DNA of 44,818 bases. Source: a virus. Below are positions 1 through 44,818 of the stretch, piece by piece. How positions within the stretch are numbered: the first letter of the stretch is position 1; every line of letters starts with the position of its first letter. Both the position numbers and the translations under genes were made by a program. Where the stretch lies: positions 1-44,818 of IMG/VR virus record IMGVR_UViG_3300045988_101875. The stretch is one strand, 5' to 3'. A model generated the notes under the pieces. It made no database searches, was not told the origin of the DNA, and saw nothing but the letters and a program-made list of their open reading frames with translations.

Positions 1-55
1 CGGGCGGTGCTATTAGCTACATTGAGTGTGCTGATATGACCAAGAATATTGATGC
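1..55. repeat. Terminal duplication of the window (identical to 44764-44818), indicating a circular or concatemeric assembly of a complete genome.
   Basis: Exact 55-nt identity between the first and last bases of the window. Confidence 0.9.
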
Positions 56-254
56 AGTTATGGCTGTTATTCAGTTTATCTATGACAACATTATGTATGC
101 TGAGCTGAATACCAAGAGTGACTATTGTCAGGTCTGTGGTTATGACGGCGAGATTAAGATTGTCACAGATAATGGCAGATTAGAATGGGAATGTCCGAAT
201 TGTGGTAATAGAGACAAAACCAAGATGAATGTGACACGTAGAACCTGTGGATAA
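1..254 (+). CDS. nrdD: Anaerobic ribonucleoside-triphosphate reductase NrdD, C-terminal part. The gene starts at 42936 and wraps across the window end.
   Basis: Frame is continuous with 42936..44818 (offset 44763, same phase). C-terminus has a CPNCG zinc ribbon and ends ...RRTCGY, the glycyl-radical motif of class III RNR. Confidence 0.85.
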   Translation, partial: GGAISYIECADMTKNIDAVMAVIQFIYDNIMYAELNTKSDYCQVCGYDGEIKIVTDNGRLEWECPNCGNRDKTKMNVTRRTCG

Positions 255-461
255 ATAATTGTCCACTTTAAACCCTTTAAACTGCGGGAAACTCCTTAGA
301 GCTGTAAATACTAAGTCATGCTGGTGACAGACATGATGGCTGTTAGTAACGGAACAGGTATAGTAAAAACTTTACAGATTGGACAATCAAACGCAACGAA
401 ACCTCTCTAGTAGAGGGACGCTCAACGACTATAATAAGGGACACTATCCTCTAAGGGAGGA

Positions 462-860
462 ATTATAATACTTAAAGAAATAGAAAACTTCAAAGGCTAT
501 TTTGTGTCGGATAATGGCACAATATTCTGCAATTTAGGCAAAGGTAATAGACGTAAAGGGAGGACTGTTCCCTTATATCCTATTACCCCACGTCCAACTA
601 AAAATGGTTATATGAGAATCTATGCTCGAAATAGCACTACCAACAAAAGACAAGACTTATATGTGCATAGATTAGTGGGACAATATTTTATCCCTAATCC
701 TCATAATAAAAGAGTTATTAACCATAAAAATTGTAATCGTGCAGATAACAGAGCATCTAATTTAGAATGGGTAACAACTAAAGAAAACATTGAATACTCT
801 ATGAATTTAAAGCATCTGTTGCGTGATGAAAAGACAGGCAGACTTGTAAGTGGACTTTAA
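462..860 (+). CDS. Free-standing HNH homing endonuclease (HNH_3-like). Probably uses a non-ATG start; the ORF-track start is GTG at 504.
   Basis: Frame is open from 438. Upstream residues ...ILKEIENFKGYFVSDNGTIFC match the typical HNH_3 N-terminus, followed by NGY..VHRLV...NHKN.N..DNRASNLEW.T..EN. Strong SD aagggagg at 453-460. Confidence 0.6.
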   Translation: MIILKEIENFKGYFVSDNGTIFCNLGKGNRRKGRTVPLYPITPRPTKNGYMRIYARNSTTNKRQDLYVHRLVGQYFIPNPHNKRVINHKNCNRADNRASNLEWVTTKENIEYSMNLKHLLRDEKTGRLVSGL

Positions 861-1147
861 AGGATAGTGTATGGTATAGTCTATTCCGTTTTAAATAATG
901 GGAAACCATCGGTATAAAAGATTTAGGTTCGCAATTTTGGAATCAGGGGCGCACTGAGGAGATTAGAGACCGCTTTATTCACCTCGGTGGAGACTTTAGT
1001 TCATAATACCCTCTGACACGCTCCAGGACGCTCGTAGAGCCATTTTTATAGACAATGCTAGTGTTTCTACCTATCAGGAAACTACAAGGCTCTATGAGCT
1101 TCCTAGAATCGTTTTTAAGACACTAAAATACAAAGGAGTGATAAACT

Positions 1148-10184: not shown

Positions 10185-12785
10185 ATGACAAATGAAGAAC
10201 TGATGCAAGAAGAATTGAACTTAGAATCATCTTACAGACAAGATGGTTACGAAGCAGCTTTATCTGCTCTCTATGAAGCCAAAGAAAAAGAGATGGTTGA
10301 TACTGCTTTGCCTATCGGACAAGCGTTCTTCAGACACAAAGCAATGGTTGTCAAGAAAACTATGGAAGAATGGCTCATTAAAAACATGAAGCCTAAAGCT
10401 GGTGTCAAGCAGAACTTTATCTTCCTGCTGGATGATTTGAAACGTGAATTTGTTACTGCTGATGGTGATGTGGATATTGATACTATTGCCAATATCTGCT
10501 CCTCTGTCACCCTCTCCTGCCTTATCAATGCCTTAACAACCAACAGCAGTAAAGGTATGGCGTTCTTTAATGATATAGGAGCACGTATCGGTGTTAACCT
10601 GATGTTTGAGTATCAGACACAATGCTTTGATAATTGGCTGAAGACCTTACCTAAAGAAGACAAAAACAGAAAAGCACTTGCAGGTATCGACAAGCGCATC
10701 GGTATGCATTATCGCTATGTATACATGAAGAAGGCTGTTAAAAACTGTGGTTACAACATGCCTACATGGGAACAAGGTGACAATGAAGCACTTATCAACT
10801 TAGGGTGTGCTCTGCTGACATTGACAGAAGACACAACAGGATATTGGTATCGTGATTCTGACATGCACACACCTACATACCTTGTCCCCACCCCTGAATT
10901 TATTGAAGCATGGGAACGAAACGAAGACAACATGCTTGCACTTGCCCACAAGAGCTGTCCTATGGTTGTTCCACCAAAAGAGTGGGTATCTTATGATGAG
11001 GGCGGTTACTATGGAGACCTTGCAGCTTTTTCAACATTCCTGCGCTTAAAATATGGACACAACGCTTTCAGAAAAACCTATGAAGCACGTCTGCATCAAT
11101 TAGATACCCCTGATGTTTATAAGGCAGTGAACAGTATCCAAGCAACAGCATGGTGCATCAACAAAGAGGTGTTGTCTATCATCAAACAATGCCGTACCTT
11201 AGGCTATATCCCCTACGGCAAGCAGAAAGACACACACATTATGAGCTTAGATTTGGATGATGGAAAACCTGCTGATTTGCCTGAACACCCTACGGATGAG
11301 ATGGTTAAGGAATACAAGAAAAATAAAGCTCAATGGTGGAAAGGGCAAAAAAGAAGAATATCTATTATCAATCGCTCTAATACCATGATAAACATAGCGG
11401 ATAAGTTCAGTGTCTATGAGAATATCTATTTTCCTTGGAATATGGATTTTAGAGGACGTATCTATCCTATTCCATCTTTCAGTCCCCAAGGTGATGATAT
11501 TTGCAAAGGCTTGTTGCTCTTTTCTGCTACCCCTCCTTGTCAAGACCCTAAAGATATTGAATGGCTTGCCATTACCGGAGCTAACCTTGCAGGTGAAGAC
11601 AAAATCAGCTATGCTGACCGCATCCAATGGGTTTATGCCAATGAAGAAGTTATTCTTGATGTAGCAAAAGACCCTATGGGTAACTTATGGTGGTTACATA
11701 AAGACAAAAAGCCTGTACAACTGCTGGCATGGTGTCTTGAATGGGCAAAAGCTAAGCAGTGGATAGCTGCCCATGGCTCTATTGTTGGTTGGGTAACAGG
11801 TCTCCCCTATGCTCAGGACGGCACATGCTCAGGTCTGCAACATTTCAGTGCTATTCTGCGTGACCCCATCGGTGGTGCTGCGGTGAACCTTGTACCCCAA
11901 GACAAACCGAATGACATCTATCGCTTGGTAGCTGACAAGGTAAATGTTGTCTTGAAGCAGGATGCTATGTCAGGCACTATTGACGAATGGGACGAAGAAA
12001 AGCTGAAGACCAAGTTCGGTACAAAAACTATGGCGCAGATATGGTTAAATTATGGTGTTAACCGCACTGTAACCAAAAGACCTACTATGACCCTTGCCTA
12101 TGGTGCTAAAAAGCGTGGCTACACTGAACAGATTATGGAAGATACAATCAGACCAGCTCTGAACGCTAAGACTACCTGTGGTTTTACAGAGACTAATGCC
12201 TATCAATGTGCTATGTATATGGCTGAGCTGATATGGAACTCTGTAGGTGCTACTGTTGTACGTGCTGTTGAGGGCATGGATTGGTTACATAAAGTTTCCA
12301 AACTTGTCACCAAAAATGCAAATGTAGTGTCTTGGTGCACACCTTTAGGTCTCTTGTTGCAACAAAATTATTTAAAGTATGAATCTAAGGTGATTAAGTT
12401 ACGTTGTGCCGGAAAGCGATTCAGAGTGTATGTCCCCCACCAAACAGGTGTGATTGATAAGACAAAACAGGCTAATGGTATTGCTCCGAACTTTATTCAC
12501 TCCATGGATGCCTGTCACCTTCAAATGACAGTATGCAGAGCTAAGGATGCTGGTATCAATCACTTTACCATGGTGCATGATTCTTATGGTTGCCCTATGT
12601 CTCAGGCTAAACTGATGTATGAGATTGTACGTAAAGCCTTTGTAGATATGTATACAGAGCATGATGTCTTGGATGAGTTTAGACAATATCTGCAACCTTT
12701 GGTGAATAAAGAACTCCCTGCTCCCCCTAAAAAAGGTGATTTAGACCTCAACATTGTATTGGACAGTAAGTACATCTTCTGCTAA
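10185..12785 (+). CDS. T7-like single-subunit DNA-directed RNA polymerase.
   Basis: 866 aa. Palm motifs ...PNFIHSMDACHLQ... and MVHDSYGC. Overall architecture and position as in T7 gene 1. Confidence 0.92.
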   Translation: MTNEELMQEELNLESSYRQDGYEAALSALYEAKEKEMVDTALPIGQAFFRHKAMVVKKTMEEWLIKNMKPKAGVKQNFIFLLDDLKREFVTADGDVDIDTIANICSSVTLSCLINALTTNSSKGMAFFNDIGARIGVNLMFEYQTQCFDNWLKTLPKEDKNRKALAGIDKRIGMHYRYVYMKKAVKNCGYNMPTWEQGDNEALINLGCALLTLTEDTTGYWYRDSDMHTPTYLVPTPEFIEAWERNEDNMLALAHKSCPMVVPPKEWVSYDEGGYYGDLAAFSTFLRLKYGHNAFRKTYEARLHQLDTPDVYKAVNSIQATAWCINKEVLSIIKQCRTLGYIPYGKQKDTHIMSLDLDDGKPADLPEHPTDEMVKEYKKNKAQWWKGQKRRISIINRSNTMINIADKFSVYENIYFPWNMDFRGRIYPIPSFSPQGDDICKGLLLFSATPPCQDPKDIEWLAITGANLAGEDKISYADRIQWVYANEEVILDVAKDPMGNLWWLHKDKKPVQLLAWCLEWAKAKQWIAAHGSIVGWVTGLPYAQDGTCSGLQHFSAILRDPIGGAAVNLVPQDKPNDIYRLVADKVNVVLKQDAMSGTIDEWDEEKLKTKFGTKTMAQIWLNYGVNRTVTKRPTMTLAYGAKKRGYTEQIMEDTIRPALNAKTTCGFTETNAYQCAMYMAELIWNSVGATVVRAVEGMDWLHKVSKLVTKNANVVSWCTPLGLLLQQNYLKYESKVIKLRCAGKRFRVYVPHQTGVIDKTKQANGIAPNFIHSMDACHLQMTVCRAKDAGINHFTMVHDSYGCPMSQAKLMYEIVRKAFVDMYTEHDVLDEFRQYLQPLVNKELPAPPKKGDLDLNIVLDSKYIFC

Positions 12786-17686: not shown

Positions 17687-17688
17687 TT

Positions 17689-18130
17689 ATGTTGGATACA
17701 AAACAATGTAATACATGTGGTAGAATCCTGCCTTTATCCTCTTTTTATCTAAGAGGTAAGGGGGGATAGAGCAGCAGGAACACCACGTCATCAATGTAAA
17801 GAATGTCGAGCAAAGATAGCATCTGCATATTATCAAAAACATAAAGAAGCACACAATAAAGTTGCAAATAGGTATCACCGCTTGAAATTTGCAGGTTTTT
17901 CAGAAGACCATTACAATCAAAAATTTCAAGAACAAAAAGGGTGTTGTGCTATTTGTGGTAAGGCAGTTTCAGAAGTAAAGCGTAAAGTACTCTGTGCAGA
18001 CCATAATCATGCCACAGGTAAGCCTAGAGGTTTATTATGTCCTATATGTAATTTAATGCTTGGCTATGCTTATGATGATATTGCTGTTTTAGAAAAAGCA
18101 ATACAGTATTTAAAGAAATATGAGGAATAA
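17689..18130 (+). pseudogene. Endo VII-type HNH endonuclease interrupted by a +1 frameshift at a G6 run (17760-17765). The N-terminal CxxC...CxxC zinc-ribbon part is in frame 1 (17689-17769); the HNH core is in frame 2 (17753-18130).
   Basis: Removing one G fuses MLDTKQCNTCGRILPLSSFYLRGKG to DRAAGTPRHQCKECRAK...KGCCAICGK...DHNHATGKPRGLLCPICNLMLG. Paralogous to the intron-encoded ORF at 19490-20068. Confidence 0.55.
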
Positions 18131-18132
18131 TT

Positions 18133-19463
18133 ATGCTTTACTTTGATATAGAAACAGATGGTCTTTTAGATACCCTCACCAAAGGGCACTGCATGGTTAT
18201 TATTGATGAACAAAATAATATATCAGCGTATCGTCCTGATACTTTCAAAAAAGGAGCTATGAGATTAATTTCTGCTCTAAAAGATGGCGAAAGTATTGTA
18301 GGGCATAATATTATTTCCTTCGACTTAGAAGCTCTTGCTAAGCTCTATCCTGAGTTCCGCATAAAGCGAGAATGGAGACCACAAGTCTTAGATACTCTTG
18401 TACTTGCACGTCTTATCTGTGGCAACATAGAAGATACTGACCACGCTAGAGTACGTAATGGTACACTCCCTGCTAAGCTGCTTGGTAGGCAGTCTCTAAA
18501 GGCGTGGGGGTATCGCCTTGGGGAGCTTAAAGGTACGTATGGTGAACAAGAAGATGCATGGGATTCCTTTAGTGAAGAGATGCTCTCCTATTGTGTGCAG
18601 GATGTCACTGTCACAAAGAAGCTCTATACATACCTTATGAAGATTGGAGCACCTGCTAAGGCTATAGAGCTGGAGCATCAGGCACAATGGCTGATGTCTA
18701 AGCAGGAGCGAAATGGTTTTGTCTTTGATTTAGAAAAGGCAGAGAAGCTGAGGGAAACCTTAGAGCTACGCTATGCTGTGTTGTCTTCTCAGCTCGTGGC
18801 GATTGTGCCACAGATACCTGATAAGGTCTTCGTACCTAAGAGAGACAACAAACGCTTAGGTTATAAGAAGGGTGTCCCTATCCAAAGATATAAGGATTTT
18901 AATCCTAGTAGCAGACAGCAGGTGGCATGGGTGCTGGAACATCAATTTAATTATCTGCCGGAAAACGAAGACTGCTATGAGGATGAAAGACTGAAGATTG
19001 ATGGTGATACCTTTAAGTTTATTAAGGGTGACGAAAACGCACCACAGGAGCTAAGAGATTTAGCTGCTGTCTTTGAGGAATACCTTATGGTAGCTAAGCG
19101 TCTTGGACAGTTAGCCACAGGTAACCAAGCATGGCTGAAGCATGTTAAGGCTGATGGTAGAATCCATGGCAGCGTAAACCCTTGTGGTACTGTAACAGGA
19201 CGTGCTACCCATGCGAACCCTAATGTTGCCCAAGTACCCCACGTTGGCAGTCCCTACGGACAAGAGTGCAGGGAATTGTTTAGAGCACCTGAGGGTTGGT
19301 TTGAGGTGGGTGTAGATGCCTGTGGCTTGGAGCTTAGGTGTCTAGCACATTATCTTTATCCCTATGATAAAGGTGCTTATGCCCATGTTATCTTGAATGG
19401 TGATATCCACACATTGAATCAACAGGCTGCTGGGTTACCTACAAGAAACCAAGCGAAGACCTT
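18133..19463 (+). CDS. DNA polymerase (T7 gp5-like, family A), exon 1 (3'-5' exonuclease and N-terminal polymerase part).
   Basis: MLYFDIETDGL Exo I motif. ...GDIHTLNQQAAGLPTRNQAKTF aligns with T7 ...GDIHTKNQIAAELPTRDNAKTF. Confidence 0.9.
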
Positions 19464-20149
19464 TGACTAAATAGAGGTCTATAAACCCATTGAAAACGGT
19501 GAAACTCTCACTGAGACAATACCGTGCGAAGCTAAAAAGGAGAAGAATGACTAGAGAAGATTATCTACAAAAGATGCTACAAATTGTGGCAGGAAATAAA
19601 CCTAAGAAATTACAGACAGCAAAACCAAGTAAGTACCCACAAGGCTATTTCAAAGCAAAGAAATGTAAGCATTGTGGGTCTATTTTTATTCCTAAAGCTC
19701 CTTCTGAGCATTACTGCTGTGACTTCTGTAAAGATTATGGTGTCACCAATGCTTACTATAAAAGAGTGTATGGTCTTACCCTTGATGATGTATTAGATAT
19801 GGCAGAAAATCAAAATTTTGTCTGTGCTATTTGTCATGGTGATAACTTTGCTATGAATGATTGCCACTCAGGGGTGCTTGTTGTTGACCATGACCACGAG
19901 ACAGGTAAAGTGCGTGGGTTGGTCTGTCATAACTGTAATCGTGCCTTAGGTTTGCTACATGATGATGTTGATAATTTCCGTAGAGCTATTTCCTATTTAG
20001 AACGTGTAACGACTATTCCGGAAGGAAGTACAGTACAAGCTGATGGTGCTGGAAGCGGTGGGCATTGATGATATAGTCTGCTCTCATAGGTGACTATGAG
20101 CTGTCCTTATGGACGCATAGGGTGTTGCGAACCCTATGGAACATTTTGG
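19464..20149 (+). mobile_element. Approx. 686-bp intervening sequence in the DNA polymerase gene, carrying an HNH endonuclease ORF; most likely a group I intron.
   Basis: Joining 19463 to 20150 restores KTF|IYAFLYGSGD (T7: KTFIYGFLYGAGDE). The upstream exon ends in T, the insertion ends in G, and the insertion carries in-frame stops. Confidence 0.7.
19490..20068 (+). CDS. Intron-encoded HNH (Endo VII-type) homing endonuclease.
   Basis: CKHCG...CCDFC zinc ribbon and VVDHDHETGKVRGLVCHNCNRALG HNH core. The true start may be ATG at 19547 (SD aaaaggag). Confidence 0.75.
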   Translation: MKTVKLSLRQYRAKLKRRRMTREDYLQKMLQIVAGNKPKKLQTAKPSKYPQGYFKAKKCKHCGSIFIPKAPSEHYCCDFCKDYGVTNAYYKRVYGLTLDDVLDMAENQNFVCAICHGDNFAMNDCHSGVLVVDHDHETGKVRGLVCHNCNRALGLLHDDVDNFRRAISYLERVTTIPEGSTVQADGAGSGGH

Positions 20150-20675
20150 TATTTATGCATTTCTCTATGGTAGTGGAGACAAAAATCTTGGCAAGCTTCT
20201 TGGTGGTGATGAAGCTATGGGCAAGAAAGCAAAGAATAAGTTTCTGAAGGCTACCCCTGCTATCAAGATGCTGCGTGAAGCTGTCAAGAATACACTTGTG
20301 GTTGAGTACCACGGCAAAATTAAAGAATGGAAACGAAAATATTTAAGAGGGTTGGATGGCAGACATCTCCATGTGAGAAGTCTACATTCAGCTCTCAATT
20401 TGCTTTTACAGTCCTGTGGTGCATTGATATGTAAAAAATGGACTGTAACTTGGGAAGAAAATATGGTGAAGGCTGGCTATGACCATGGCAAAGACTTCTT
20501 TTGGATGGCAAATATTCATGATGAATCCCAAATAGCCTGCCGTACTAAAGAGATAGCTGAAGATGCTAGCCGAATTGCCCAAGAATCTATGAGACAAACA
20601 CAAGAATATTATGGAATCAGATGCCAATTAGATACCGAGGGAAAGATTGGTCAAAATTGGTATGATTGTCATTGA
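20150..20675 (+). CDS. DNA polymerase exon 2 (motifs B and C, C-terminus).
   Basis: IYAFLYGSGDKNLGKLL...VHDESQIACR...LDTEGKIGQNWYDCH aligns with the T7 gp5 C-terminus (...LDTEGKMGPNWAICH). Confidence 0.88.
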
Positions 20676-21071: not shown

Positions 21072-21195
21072 GGGTGTGGTAACAAGAATCCGCATCGAAA
21101 TCCAATGTAAACAAGGTGGCTTTATGACTATTGCATCCCCACATACCTTAGAGACCAAAGCAAAGGGTCTTGTAGCAGGAGGTGCCCTGTTCTAA
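20980..21195 (+). CDS. Hypothetical protein (71 aa); overlaps the 3' end of the previous gene in another frame.
   Basis: SD ggaggt 9 nt upstream of ATG 20980. KOW/SH3-like KIGQKVYIKRQ...VVTRIRIE segment. Confidence 0.4.
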   Translation: MSKQKQPFVPKIGQKVYIKRQNSLGETVYFEGVVTRIRIEIQCKQGGFMTIASPHTLETKAKGLVAGGALF

Positions 21196-21815
21196 TGCCT
21201 ACTGTTGGACTTATTTCTATGACCCCTAACTACATGGCACTCTTGGAGTGTGCTTGTAGACAACCCTATGGTAAAGATGTTAACGAGAAGTCTATCAAGA
21301 AAATTATTGAGAGCGGACATCTTAGTGTCTTGGAGCACTGCTATGCTTCCTTTTTGGTGACATGTTCTGTGCGTGTCTTAGGACAACTCACGAGACATCG
21401 CCACCTCAGCTTCACCTGTAAATCTGCTAGAGGCAGTGTCTTTGATACCTGCATTATCCCTGATGGTATGTATGATTTTGCTAAAAAGCATGGCGTACCT
21501 AAAGAAGTAGTTGATTCTATGATTGATAAGCATCCTATGCTTCATGCTTACAAAGAATGTATTGCTGATGGTCTTAGTGAGCAGGATGCTGCCTATTTTT
21601 TGCCACAGGGTGTTGAAACATCCCTTGTTGTAACCGGAAACTTTAGAGCATGGTGTGAATACTTGCCTAAGCGTTTGTGCAAGAGAGCCATGCCTGAGCA
21701 TAGAAAGTTAGCTGAAGCCATCCAAAAATGTTTGGCTGATGCTGCACCTGAAATCTTTGATAGAAGCTTTATGAACTGTGCTCACTGTACTGAAAGGAGC
21801 TGTGATTTTAAATGA
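21195..21815 (+). CDS. thyX: Flavin-dependent thymidylate synthase ThyX.
   Basis: RHRHLSFTCKSAR matches the ThyX RHRxxSxxxxSxR signature. Confidence 0.8.
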   Translation: MPTVGLISMTPNYMALLECACRQPYGKDVNEKSIKKIIESGHLSVLEHCYASFLVTCSVRVLGQLTRHRHLSFTCKSARGSVFDTCIIPDGMYDFAKKHGVPKEVVDSMIDKHPMLHAYKECIADGLSEQDAAYFLPQGVETSLVVTGNFRAWCEYLPKRLCKRAMPEHRKLAEAIQKCLADAAPEIFDRSFMNCAHCTERSCDFK

Positions 21816-42886: not shown

Positions 42887-42916
42887 GAGGGAGCTTAGTC
42901 TCCCTCTTTTATTTTT
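42887..42916 (+). terminator. Rho-independent terminator after the endolysin.
   Basis: gagggag/ctccctc stem, then ttttattttt. Confidence 0.7.
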
Positions 42917-42935
42917 AAAGGAGGTCTATATAGAT

Positions 42936-44818
42936 TTGAAAATTAAGAAACGTGATGGGTCTCTCGTAGACTTTAATAAAGACAAAATTATTAATGCTAT
43001 CTCTAAGGCTGGCTTTGTAGCTTCAAAGACAAAAAATGCTATTGCTGATGTTGTTGAAAAGATGGCAAAAAAAGAAACACTAACTGTGGAAAAGATACAA
43101 GATATTGTGGAAACTGAGCTTATGCTGAACTATTACCCTGAGGTAGCTAGAGAATATGTTCGCTATCGCTATAAACGTGAGCTTATCCGTAATACCAAAG
43201 GTGCTTTGAGTGAAGTGCTTGAAATTGTCAACCTCAGCAACCAAGATGTGAATGAGGAGAACTCTAATAAGAACCCTGTTATTTTGTCGACCCAACGTGA
43301 CTATATGGCAGGTATGGTCTCTAAAGAGCTTTCTGAAAAGCTGTTGTTCCCTCCGGATGTAATGAAGGCACATAAAGCAGGTATCATCCATGTGCATGAT
43401 ATGGACTATGCTATCCAAAAGATGTACAACTGTGCTCTGTTAGACATGGAAGACATGCTCCAAAATGGCACTGTAATCAATGGTACGATGATTGAAAAGC
43501 CACATAGCTTTGCTACTGCTTGCAATATTGCTACTCAGATTATGGCACAGGTCGCTTCTAACCAATATGGTGGGCAAAGTGTGTCGGTAGCACATTTAGC
43601 TCCTTTTGTCAATACCTCTAGACAAAAAATTAAAGAAGAAGTTAAGCAGGAACTAGAAGATATTCAGGCAGAGTATTGTGAGACAGACTTAGACTATATC
43701 ACAGAAAAGCGATTGAAAGCTGAAATCACTAAGGGTGTACAGACAATGCAATATCAGATTAATACCCTTATGACATCCAATGGTCAGACACCCTTTGTTA
43801 CCTTATTCTTATATCTTAATGAAGCTAAGAACGAGCAGGAGAAGAAAGACCTTGCTATGGTGATTGAGGAAATCATCCGTCAACGCTATCAGGGTGTCAA
43901 GAATGAAAAGGGTGCATGGATTGCTGCTGCGTTTCCTAAGCTGATTTATGTCTTAGAGGAAGACAACATCCGTAAGGGTACACCCTATTATTACCTCACA
44001 GAGATGTGTGCTAAATGTACTGCTAAGCGTATGCAGCCTGATTATTTGTCTGAGAAGATTATGCTGAAGAACAAGAAGACTGAAGATGGTGTGGGTCACT
44101 GCTATCCACCTATGGGATGCAGAAGCTTCTTGACACCCTATCTTGATGAGAATGGTAAAGCTAAATTCTATGGTCGCTTCAACCAAGGTGTTGTCTCCAT
44201 CAACCTTGTGGATGTGGCGTTGTCCGCTGGTAAAGACAAAAATAAATTTTGGTCTATTCTTGATGAGCGTTTGGAGTTGTGCCATAAAGCCTTACGTGTA
44301 AGACACCAAAACCTTAAAGGTACAATCTCTAATGTCTCCCCTATCCATTGGCAATATGGTGCTATTGCTCGTCTGCAAAAAGGTGAGAAGATTGACAAGC
44401 TGTTGGAAAATGGCTACTCCACTATCTCCCTTGGCTATGCAGGTCTCTATGAGTGTTGTATGGCAATGTTCGGTAAATCTCATACTGACCCTACTGTGAA
44501 ACCCTTTGCTCTCTCTGTCATGCAACATCTTAATGACAAATGTGCTGAATGGAAAGCTAAGGAACATTTAGGCTATAGTGTCTATGGTACTCCTATGGAG
44601 ACCACCACATATAAGTTTGCGAAGTGTCTTCGTGACCGCTTTGGGGTAATCAAGGAAGTCACTGACCATGATTACATTACCAATAGCTATCATGTGAATG
44701 TCCGTGAACCTATTGACCCCTTCACCAAACTGCAATTTGAATCTGAGTTTCAACTGCTCAGTCCGGGCGGTGCTATTAGCTACATTGAGTGTGCTGATAT
44801 GACCAAGAATATTGATGC
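42936..44818 (+). CDS. nrdD: Anaerobic ribonucleoside-triphosphate reductase NrdD, N-terminal and main part; continues at 1..254.
   Basis: TTG start with SD aaaggagg. N-terminal ATP-cone KIKKRDGSLVDFNKDKIINAI. Frame open to the window end. Total length 693 aa including the wrap. Confidence 0.85.
   Translation, partial: MKIKKRDGSLVDFNKDKIINAISKAGFVASKTKNAIADVVEKMAKKETLTVEKIQDIVETELMLNYYPEVAREYVRYRYKRELIRNTKGALSEVLEIVNLSNQDVNEENSNKNPVILSTQRDYMAGMVSKELSEKLLFPPDVMKAHKAGIIHVHDMDYAIQKMYNCALLDMEDMLQNGTVINGTMIEKPHSFATACNIATQIMAQVASNQYGGQSVSVAHLAPFVNTSRQKIKEEVKQELEDIQAEYCETDLDYITEKRLKAEITKGVQTMQYQINTLMTSNGQTPFVTLFLYLNEAKNEQEKKDLAMVIEEIIRQRYQGVKNEKGAWIAAAFPKLIYVLEEDNIRKGTPYYYLTEMCAKCTAKRMQPDYLSEKIMLKNKKTEDGVGHCYPPMGCRSFLTPYLDENGKAKFYGRFNQGVVSINLVDVALSAGKDKNKFWSILDERLELCHKALRVRHQNLKGTISNVSPIHWQYGAIARLQKGEKIDKLLENGYSTISLGYAGLYECCMAMFGKSHTDPTVKPFALSVMQHLNDKCAEWKAKEHLGYSVYGTPMETTTYKFAKCLRDRFGVIKEVTDHDYITNSYHVNVREPIDPFTKLQFESEFQLLSPGGAISYIECADMTKNID

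Follow-up and report, generated by a model that had tools for sequence, protein, structure and literature searches.

A probable mobile IA2 group I intron without a P8 hairpin in the motif B codons of a T7-like phage DNA polymerase gene

The window analyzed here (44,818 nucleotides [nt], positions 1 to 44,818 of the IMG/VR virus record IMGVR_UViG_3300045988_101875) carries a phage gene for a family-A DNA polymerase that is interrupted by an insertion. We are highly confident that this insertion, 19464-20149, is a mobile group I intron of subgroup IA2 lying in the codons of the O-helix (motif B) of the polymerase. A preliminary description of the same DNA, made from the sequence alone, had read it as a group I-like intron with an HNH endonuclease open reading frame (ORF), and that reading is borne out by the P1 and P10 pairings, a covariance model, homologous introns, and intron-less alleles, all of which agree. 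The boundaries given there are upheld because the RNA structure and the intron-less alleles require them.

An interrupted polymerase gene

The first polymerase ORF (18133..19470, + strand, 445 amino acids [aa]) is closed by a TAA at 19468-19470; the polymerase frame reopens from 20136, with IYAFLYGSGD encoded from 20151. Joined at 19463 and 20150, the two parts give 1857 nt in frame and a protein of 618 aa that reads ...NQAKTF|IYAFLYGSGD, the insertion (19464-20149) being exactly 686 nt long, with T as the last base of exon 1 and G as its own last base. The frame stop at 19470, the resumption, the join, the length, and the T...G boundary bases had all been given in the preliminary description and proved exact: the protein is restored, and intron-less alleles agree. 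Pfam DNA_pol_A was found on both halves, and the joined protein aligns in one piece with uninterrupted polymerases at 100% query coverage (best identity 52%, tblastn) and can be aligned to T7 gp5 through the O-helix motif AKTFIYGFLYGAGD. The ligated junction predicted from the exon ends, ...AAGACCUU|UAUUUAUGC..., is exactly what one intron-less relative (L148) has across the site, AAGACCTTTATTTACGCC, the sequence around the site in that allele being AAGACCTTTATTTACGCCTTCCTC.

18133..19463, + strand: DNA polymerase exon 1 (3'-5' exonuclease domain, thumb, and fingers to the K-T-F of motif B)
19457-19463, + strand: 5' strand of P1, AGACCUU, the final 7 nt of exon 1
19468..19470, + strand: in-frame TAA stop of the exon-1 frame, 5 nt into the intron, in loop L1
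20150..20675, + strand: DNA polymerase exon 2 (remaining motif B IYAFLYGSGD, motif C HDE, and C-terminus; first 5 nt in P10)

The polymerase had also been described as lacking about 75 aa at the thioredoxin-binding loop. The loop is indeed much reduced, but only about 43 aa are missing there, residues 257-327 of T7 gp5 (the thioredoxin-binding region) being represented by 28 aa. The joined protein is 86 aa shorter than T7 gp5 (618 versus 704), and the other missing residues, about 36 aa in the N-terminal half and about 7 aa in the C-terminal half, fall mostly in the exonuclease half; the earlier figure is a coincidence of totals. An intein was considered and rejected because of stop codons: translation in the frame of exon 1 would end 5 nt into the insertion, whose internal ORF lies in another frame and has its own Shine-Dalgarno sequence.

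Boundaries and fold of the intron

Both exon ends fit the internal guide sequence. In P1 (7 base pairs [bp]), AGACCUU (19457-63) pairs with GAGGUCU (19474-80) and forms the splice-site wobble U19463·G19474; in P10 (5 bp), UAUUU of exon 2 (20150-54) pairs with AAAUA (19469-73), directly 5' of the P1 guide. The sequence of P1 differs in the introns of Yersinia phage Berlin and Klebsiella phages RCIP0053 and IME184, but its pairing is kept. There is no P2 in the window intron, where P1 is followed by AUAAA and then P3. The P3-P6 and P7 helices, the S element of J8/7-P7 ("GAUAUAGUC"), and the R element of J6/7-P7 could all be located, and the marks of group I introns are present in the exon-1 U opposite the guide G in P1 and in the G that ends the intron. 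P7.1 and P7.2 are linked by G-U-A, P2 is lacking, and the ORF lies in the P6a loop, which are the features on which the IA2 assignment of the PhiI/W31 and Pf-WMP3 polymerase introns was based (PMC3428280). Membership in the IA2 family is further indicated by ribozyme sequence homology to known members and by the insertion site shared with Berlin and RCIP0053.

19464..20149, + strand: group I intron, subgroup IA2, 686 nt, starting after U19463 and ending with G20149
19469..19480, + strand: internal guide sequence, AAAUA (19469-73) for P10 and GAGGUCU (19474-80) for P1
19486..19536, + strand: 5' half of the core, matched by nhmmer and the covariance model, with compensatory changes in P3, P4, P5, P6, and P6a (43 members)
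19486-92 and 20056-62, + strand: P3, CCCAUUG with CGGUGGG
between the P3 5' strand and P4, + strand: J3/4, AAA
19496-501 and 19520-25, + strand: P4, ACGGUG with UACCGU
19506-16, + strand: P5, UCUC-ACU-GAGA
19526-28 and 20003-05, + strand: P6, GCG with CGU
19532-36 and 19996-20000, + strand: P6a, CUAAA with UUUAG, with the ORF inside its loop
19547..20068, + strand: homing-endonuclease ORF, 173 aa, in loop L6a (Pfam PF02945, homologues)
between the P6 3' strand and the P7 5' strand, + strand: J6/7, GUAA
20010-16 and 20073-80, + strand: P7, CGACUAU with AUAGUC(U)G
20017-26, + strand: P7.1, UCC-GGAA-GGA, with the GUA linker to P7.2 at 20028-30
20031..20051, + strand: P7.2, CAGUAC/GUGCUG, 6 bp, with the 9-nt loop AAGCUGAUG
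20056..20080, + strand: P3 3' strand, CAUU, J8/7 (to 20072), and P7 3' strand
20083-100, + strand: P9, CUCAUAG-GUGA-CUAUGAG, with a GUGA loop
20104-13, + strand: P9.1, UCC-UUAU-GGA
20116-38, + strand: P9.2, CAUAGGG-UGUUGCGAA-CCCUAUG
after P9.2 to G20149, + strand: 3' tail of the intron, GAACAUUUUGG, whose G is the last intron base

Several observations weigh against this assignment. In a comparison with the Rfam group I models, which the preliminary description had proposed as a check, RF00028 stays below its gathering score. At gathering thresholds no Rfam match was found in the window region, and in E-value mode RF00028 scored 23.1 bits (E=0.002 on 1 kb), short of the 50 bits required, in an alignment whose J8/7-P7-P9 part is convincing and whose 5' half is wrong. 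Its placing of P1-P3 and P8 inside the ORF was rejected on comparison with homologues. The shortfall is expected of an intron that lacks both P2 and P8 and has 470 nt of ORF inserted. Single-sequence folding of an ORF-less sister intron (L170) was likewise unfavorable, giving a structure not significantly more stable than shuffles (z=-1.9); such minimum free energy folding is uninformative here because the P3/P7 pseudoknot is beyond its prediction. The ORF overlaps the ribozyme core from the 3' strand of P6 to that of P3, its last 19 codons spanning P6', P7, P7.1, P7.2, and P3', and its translation could interfere with folding. Finally, the core has no P8, a helix that normally belongs to the conserved group I core, textbooks counting P3-P8 as the conserved domain; were the window intron the sole example, this absence would point to an impaired ribozyme.

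A family of related introns

A megablast search of the whole region against isolate phages gave no match, but sensitive blastn and protein searches did, and blastn recovered homologous insertions in Klebsiella phages IME184 and Kpp-61, Klebsiella phage RCIP0053, and the Yersinia phage Berlin group (for IME184, E=4e-36 over 88% of the intron). A pattern scan of IMG/VR built on the shared P7...P7' strands extended these to at least 119 phage loci, which among the matches listed reduce to 79 unique cores. From 43 family members RNAalifold predicted P3, P4, P5, P6, P6a, P7.1, P7.2, and P9, with compensatory double changes in 28 of 35 predicted pairs. A covariance model (R1) was built from 24 independent family members, with the window's own P8-less clade left out; it matched the 3' half of the window intron (19933-20109) at 57.9 bits (E=1e-16), the 5' half (19479-19621) at 32 bits (E=2e-8), and the ORF-less sister intron L170 at 133.5 bits (E=3e-40). 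Judged by these sequence and model matches, the window intron is a homologue of the Berlin intron, which occupies the same site, and both belong to a family that numbers over 100 introns in phages.

Intron-less alleles and probable mobility

A protein-guided scan for related polymerases yielded 66 loci. About 30 metagenomic relatives, at 92-94% aa identity, have an uninterrupted polymerase gene of 1854 nt, and four contigs from other samples have the window's intron at this position; their introns are 96-100% identical to it, and their exons differ by 6-12%. In one of these (L097) the intron is identical over 686 of 686 nt, against differences of 12% in the distal part of exon 1 and of 6-7.5% in the 200 flanking nt. 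Both marks that homing leaves in a population are seen: the intron is present in some alleles and absent from others, and it varies less than the DNA around it. Because the intron is far more conserved than the exons, the pattern fits recent homing of the window intron with co-conversion of flanks. Within the insertion, the non-coding parts are the most conserved portion.

These alleles bear on a different explanation, in which the 445-aa and ~179-aa polypeptides are translated separately and associate non-covalently as a split polymerase, the insert being a free-standing endonuclease cassette. Both halves are open, the second has an in-frame ATG at 20136, and the public annotations of IME184 and Kpp-61 give two separate polymerase coding sequences. 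The break nevertheless falls inside the contiguous O-helix of motif B (KTF|IYAFLYG), and the ATG at 20136 sits in the 3' strand of P9.2 without a Shine-Dalgarno sequence. Conservation within the insertion is highest in the non-coding parts, which hold covarying group I helices and a canonical P1/P10 guide that fits both exon ends, and from the intron-less alleles it is clear that most relatives have the gene in one piece. We therefore give a split polymerase almost no credence and retain the intron. Splicing itself is inferred from conservation, from the occurrence of alleles with and without the intron in one phage population, and from the essential role of the polymerase.

The intron-encoded endonuclease

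The internal ORF has a Shine-Dalgarno sequence, AAGGAG, at 19537-42, an ATG start at 19547, and a TGA stop at 20066-68, in J8/7. P6a encloses the Shine-Dalgarno sequence, the ATG, and most of the ORF, and ORF-less relatives cap P6a with a short loop. The program-called TTG start at 19490 was rejected in favor of the ATG because of the Shine-Dalgarno sequence, because homologues begin MT(R/K)EDYL, and because the upstream stretch is ribozyme core, P3-P6. The 173-aa product has its Endonuclease VII/HNH domain at the C-terminal end, after a Cys-rich N-terminal region: it matches Pfam Endonuclease_7 (PF02945) with E=2e-19 (69.8 bits versus a cutoff of 23.6), and its matches in PDB are Hpy99I and T4 endonuclease VII, aligned through DHDH..G.VRGL.C..CN. 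Both the Pfam match and the PDB alignment give it a beta-beta-alpha-metal catalytic domain. It is 59% identical to the ORF of the Berlin intron. Codon differences from three relatives, as synonymous:nonsynonymous, are 9:0, 7:1, and 12:6; with the ORF intact and its changes mostly synonymous, these counts indicate purifying selection.

Loss of helix P8

The core of the window intron departs from its family at helix P8. Its P3 3' strand, CGGUGGG (the same as in L053 and L087, which have P8), is followed by CAUU and then J8/7, with no P8 hairpin in the window, whereas every other family member among the matches listed has one, of 4-7 bp, between P3' and J8/7 (Berlin, GCGC-UGAG-GCGC; IME184, CACC-UACG-GGUG; L053, CUCC-UUAG-GGAG). 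The distance from the GAAG of J7.2/3 to P7' is 21 nt in the window versus at least 28 nt in the 70-odd other unique cores listed, one shorter distance among them being a parsing artefact. In the covariance-model alignment of L170, a single nt stands for the 11 P8 positions, and the P7.2 loop has 11 nt in place of 4. The absence of P8 is taken from the direct reading, the length parse, and the covariance-model alignment because MAFFT misaligned the window's P3' (alignment A1). A second change accompanies the first: UGAUG (20041-45), inserted in L7.2, and a 6-bp P7.2 were seen among the listed matches only in the P8-less clade, the other family members having a 5-bp P7.2 with an AAGY tetraloop.

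The P8-less core is found as six sequence variants at two insertion sites, in samples from at least 6 IMG datasets. The downstream site lies after Leu449 and before Tyr450 of FLYG, equivalent to after 20165 in the window, and in introns at that site the guide matches the new exon end instead (GUUCCUU/GAGGAAC).

At the window's site: the window sequence (core flanks identical in L097 and L158), L088, and L080
16 nt downstream: L155, 691 nt, with the same EndoVII ORF
16 nt downstream: L183, 655 nt, with a different, unrelated HNH ORF
16 nt downstream, about 4348 onward: L170/L171, 233 nt, with no ORF

Whether P8 has been lost from a working intron is the point at which two other explanations must be weighed. 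One is decay: the loss of P8 killed the ribozyme, and the window is a defective genome or the assembly of one. The missing helix, present in the 70-odd other unique cores listed, and the Rfam scores under threshold speak for this. The recurrence described above does not: the core is spread over six variants, at least 6 IMG datasets, and two sites with re-matched guides, and its ORF may be the EndoVII one, a different HNH one, or missing altogether. Pairing in P7.2 and P3 also survives the substitutions within the clade (U·G to C-G, G-C to G·U, and C-G to U·G), and the polymerase exons and endonuclease ORF are intact and under purifying selection. Such spread is not expected of a dead intron in an essential gene, and we consider decay very improbable. 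Because a dead ribozyme in an essential gene would not survive changes of site and exchanges of ORF, we infer that the P8-less core splices in vivo.

The other explanation is that P8 was replaced and not lost, either by a re-registered P3' (GAUGG) with a new P8 (GUGCU/GGCAU) or by a pseudoknot of UGAUG (20041-45) with CAUUG (20063-67) stacking on P3. The L7.2 insertion and the P8 deletion co-occur, and do so only in the P8-less clade among the matches listed; UGAUG is complementary to CAUUG; and at the sole polymorphic position in UGAUG, L080 and L183 have A in place of G20042, so that a U·G pair of the pseudoknot becomes U-A. The re-registered fold is energetically worse, at about -6 to -9 kcal/mol versus -12.8 for P7.2 plus P3, and gives up a P3 identical to that of the P8-containing L053 and L087. 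The pseudoknot helix is very weak, with a contribution of only about -0.7 kcal/mol, and its formation would occupy the start of the conserved J8/7 strand; as CAUUG is invariant there is no covariation, and the G-to-A polymorphism is compatible with the pairing but no proof of it. Replacement by either structure thus seems to us unlikely, if less so than decay.

On balance we lean toward regarding the P8-less, P2-less intron as one of a natural, actively spreading clade of ribozymes, in which P8 is dispensable for the phage IA2 core, with the 5-nt insertion in L7.2 possibly serving as a substitute contact for P8. A crude full-text literature search found no report of P8-less group I introns, and novelty is not thereby established. 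If the interpretation is true, the clade would represent a new minimal architecture for group I catalysis, and the 233-nt ORF-less form, if self-splicing, would offer structural studies a compact ribozyme of natural origin and would put P8's contribution to the test. The same ribozyme at two sites 16 nt apart, in three ORF states, is also a natural record of intron retargeting and of ORF exchange or recombination.

Proposed splicing and homing

We propose the following sequence of events. The polymerase gene would be transcribed as a single pre-mRNA, in which the intron RNA would fold into P1, P3-P7, P7.1, P7.2, and P9-P9.2. An external guanosine would attack after U19463, which the G·U wobble keeps in place in P1; the 3'-OH thus released on exon 1 would then attack after G20149, with P10 aligning exon 2, and the product would be an mRNA for the 618-aa polymerase. 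Ribosomes on unspliced RNA would halt at the TAA 5 nt into the intron. In mixed infection, the Endonuclease VII-type HNH enzyme would be expected to cut or nick intron-less polymerase alleles near the site, and repair of the cut allele would copy the intron in (homing).

Other insertions and genome context

A third insertion site in the polymerase gene, H567|D568 in the catalytic HDE motif (about 20519 in the window), is empty in the window. Relatives L150, L155, L157, L158, L175-L177, and L182 carry about 630 nt there, one of these being a contig in which the window's site holds an intron identical to that of the window. Because covariance model R1 matches these inserts weakly (25-29 bits), they are probably more distant group I introns. 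This phage lineage is thus an intron hot spot, with three sites within about 125 codons of one gene and with intron-plus and intron-minus alleles coexisting.

A second group I intron in the window (253-920, junction 252|921) interrupts nrdD, the gene for anaerobic ribonucleotide reductase, at its glycyl-radical motif.

about 42900-44818, wrapping to 1-252, with exon 2 at 921-1000: nrdD, with the intron inserted at RRTCG|YLG

This intron has a P1 of GUGGAU/GUCCAC with a U252·G pair and a terminal G920, and an HNH_3 ORF at 504-860 (Pfam E=3e-10) that lies ahead of the true J8/7-P7' (GGUAUAGUC, about 873-881). RF00028 matches it at 26.4 bits (E=1.8e-4 on 1 kb), and the joined NrdD C-terminus aligns continuously across the junction with solved NrdD structures. 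Directly upstream of the polymerase start there is a free-standing Endonuclease VII-type HNH gene (17882-18130, 82 aa, Pfam E=2e-20) whose product is 38% identical to the catalytic domain of the intron endonuclease. The 445-bp block that holds this gene, 17687-18131, is missing in full from three relatives that are otherwise 88-92% identical and is therefore taken to be a separate mobile insertion.

The first ~55 nt of the window (1-55) repeat the last ~55 nt (44764-44818), and the window is therefore a circularised assembly, with genes crossing its ends. The phage is T7-like, with a single-subunit RNA polymerase at 10185-12785 and a T7-type terminase. Its replication module includes a ThyX-type thymidylate synthase gene (21195-21815; Pfam Thy1, E=3e-37), which, like nrdD, is a gene of nucleotide metabolism.

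Comparison with known introns

Introns with a homing endonuclease in T7-like polymerase genes have been described since 2004, when Bonocora and Shub are said to have reported the PhiI and W31 DNA polymerase introns and the endonuclease I-TslI (J Bacteriol 186:8153). Among the closest known counterparts is the intron of Berlin, whose polymerase coding sequence is recorded as a join of two pieces around an endonuclease VII gene. It shares with the window intron the insertion point (AKTF|IYGFLYG, as does RCIP0053), P1, the lack of P2, the P6a ORF, P7.1/P7.2, and P9-P9.2, and its 3' core is homologous by blastn and the covariance model, although the host polymerases are only about 45% identical. 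Berlin differs in having a 4-bp P8 and a 5-bp P7.2 with a tetraloop, where the window has no P8 and an enlarged L7.2, and the ORFs of Berlin and IME184 stop at a UAA in J6/7, whereas that of the window is 19 codons longer. The closest DNA match among isolates is to the Molineuxvirinae phages IME184 (MZ398244, L001) and Kpp-61 (PQ570679, L002), with 67-70% intron identity and the same ORF type and core; their introns, which have P8, are inserted 11 nt downstream of the window's site (KTFIYAF^LYG) and carry a guide re-matched to that position.

Two further systems lie at other positions. The PhiI and W31 introns, as described in PMC3428280, are IA2 introns without P2, with P7.1/P7.2 linked by G-U-A and an HNH ORF in P6a, in a T7-like polymerase gene; they are reported to self-splice in vitro and to be spliced in vivo. 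They are described in PMC3428280 as placed at Pol I position 881, in the HDE motif, which in the lineage of the window phage is the third site (H567|D568), filled in relatives such as L157 and L155 and empty in the window. The intron of cyanophage Pf-WMP3 (I-PfoP3I) is also a P2-less IA2 intron in a T7-like polymerase gene, in which the HNH ORF starts in P6a and overlaps P6, P7, P7.1, and P7.2 and the exon-1 frame stops at the intron start, but it lies at Pol I site 674, encodes an HNH protein of another subfamily, and has P8 (PMC3428280).

Seen against these systems, the window element is a further, mostly ordinary member of a known family of IA2 introns in the polymerase genes of T7-like phages. 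Its practical value lies in annotation, since such polymerases appear as two genes in several public phage records: those of IME184 and Kpp-61 have two polymerase coding sequences with an "endonuclease VII" between them and no intron annotated, and that of RCIP0053 (OR532847), which has an intron at the window's own site, lists hypothetical proteins only.

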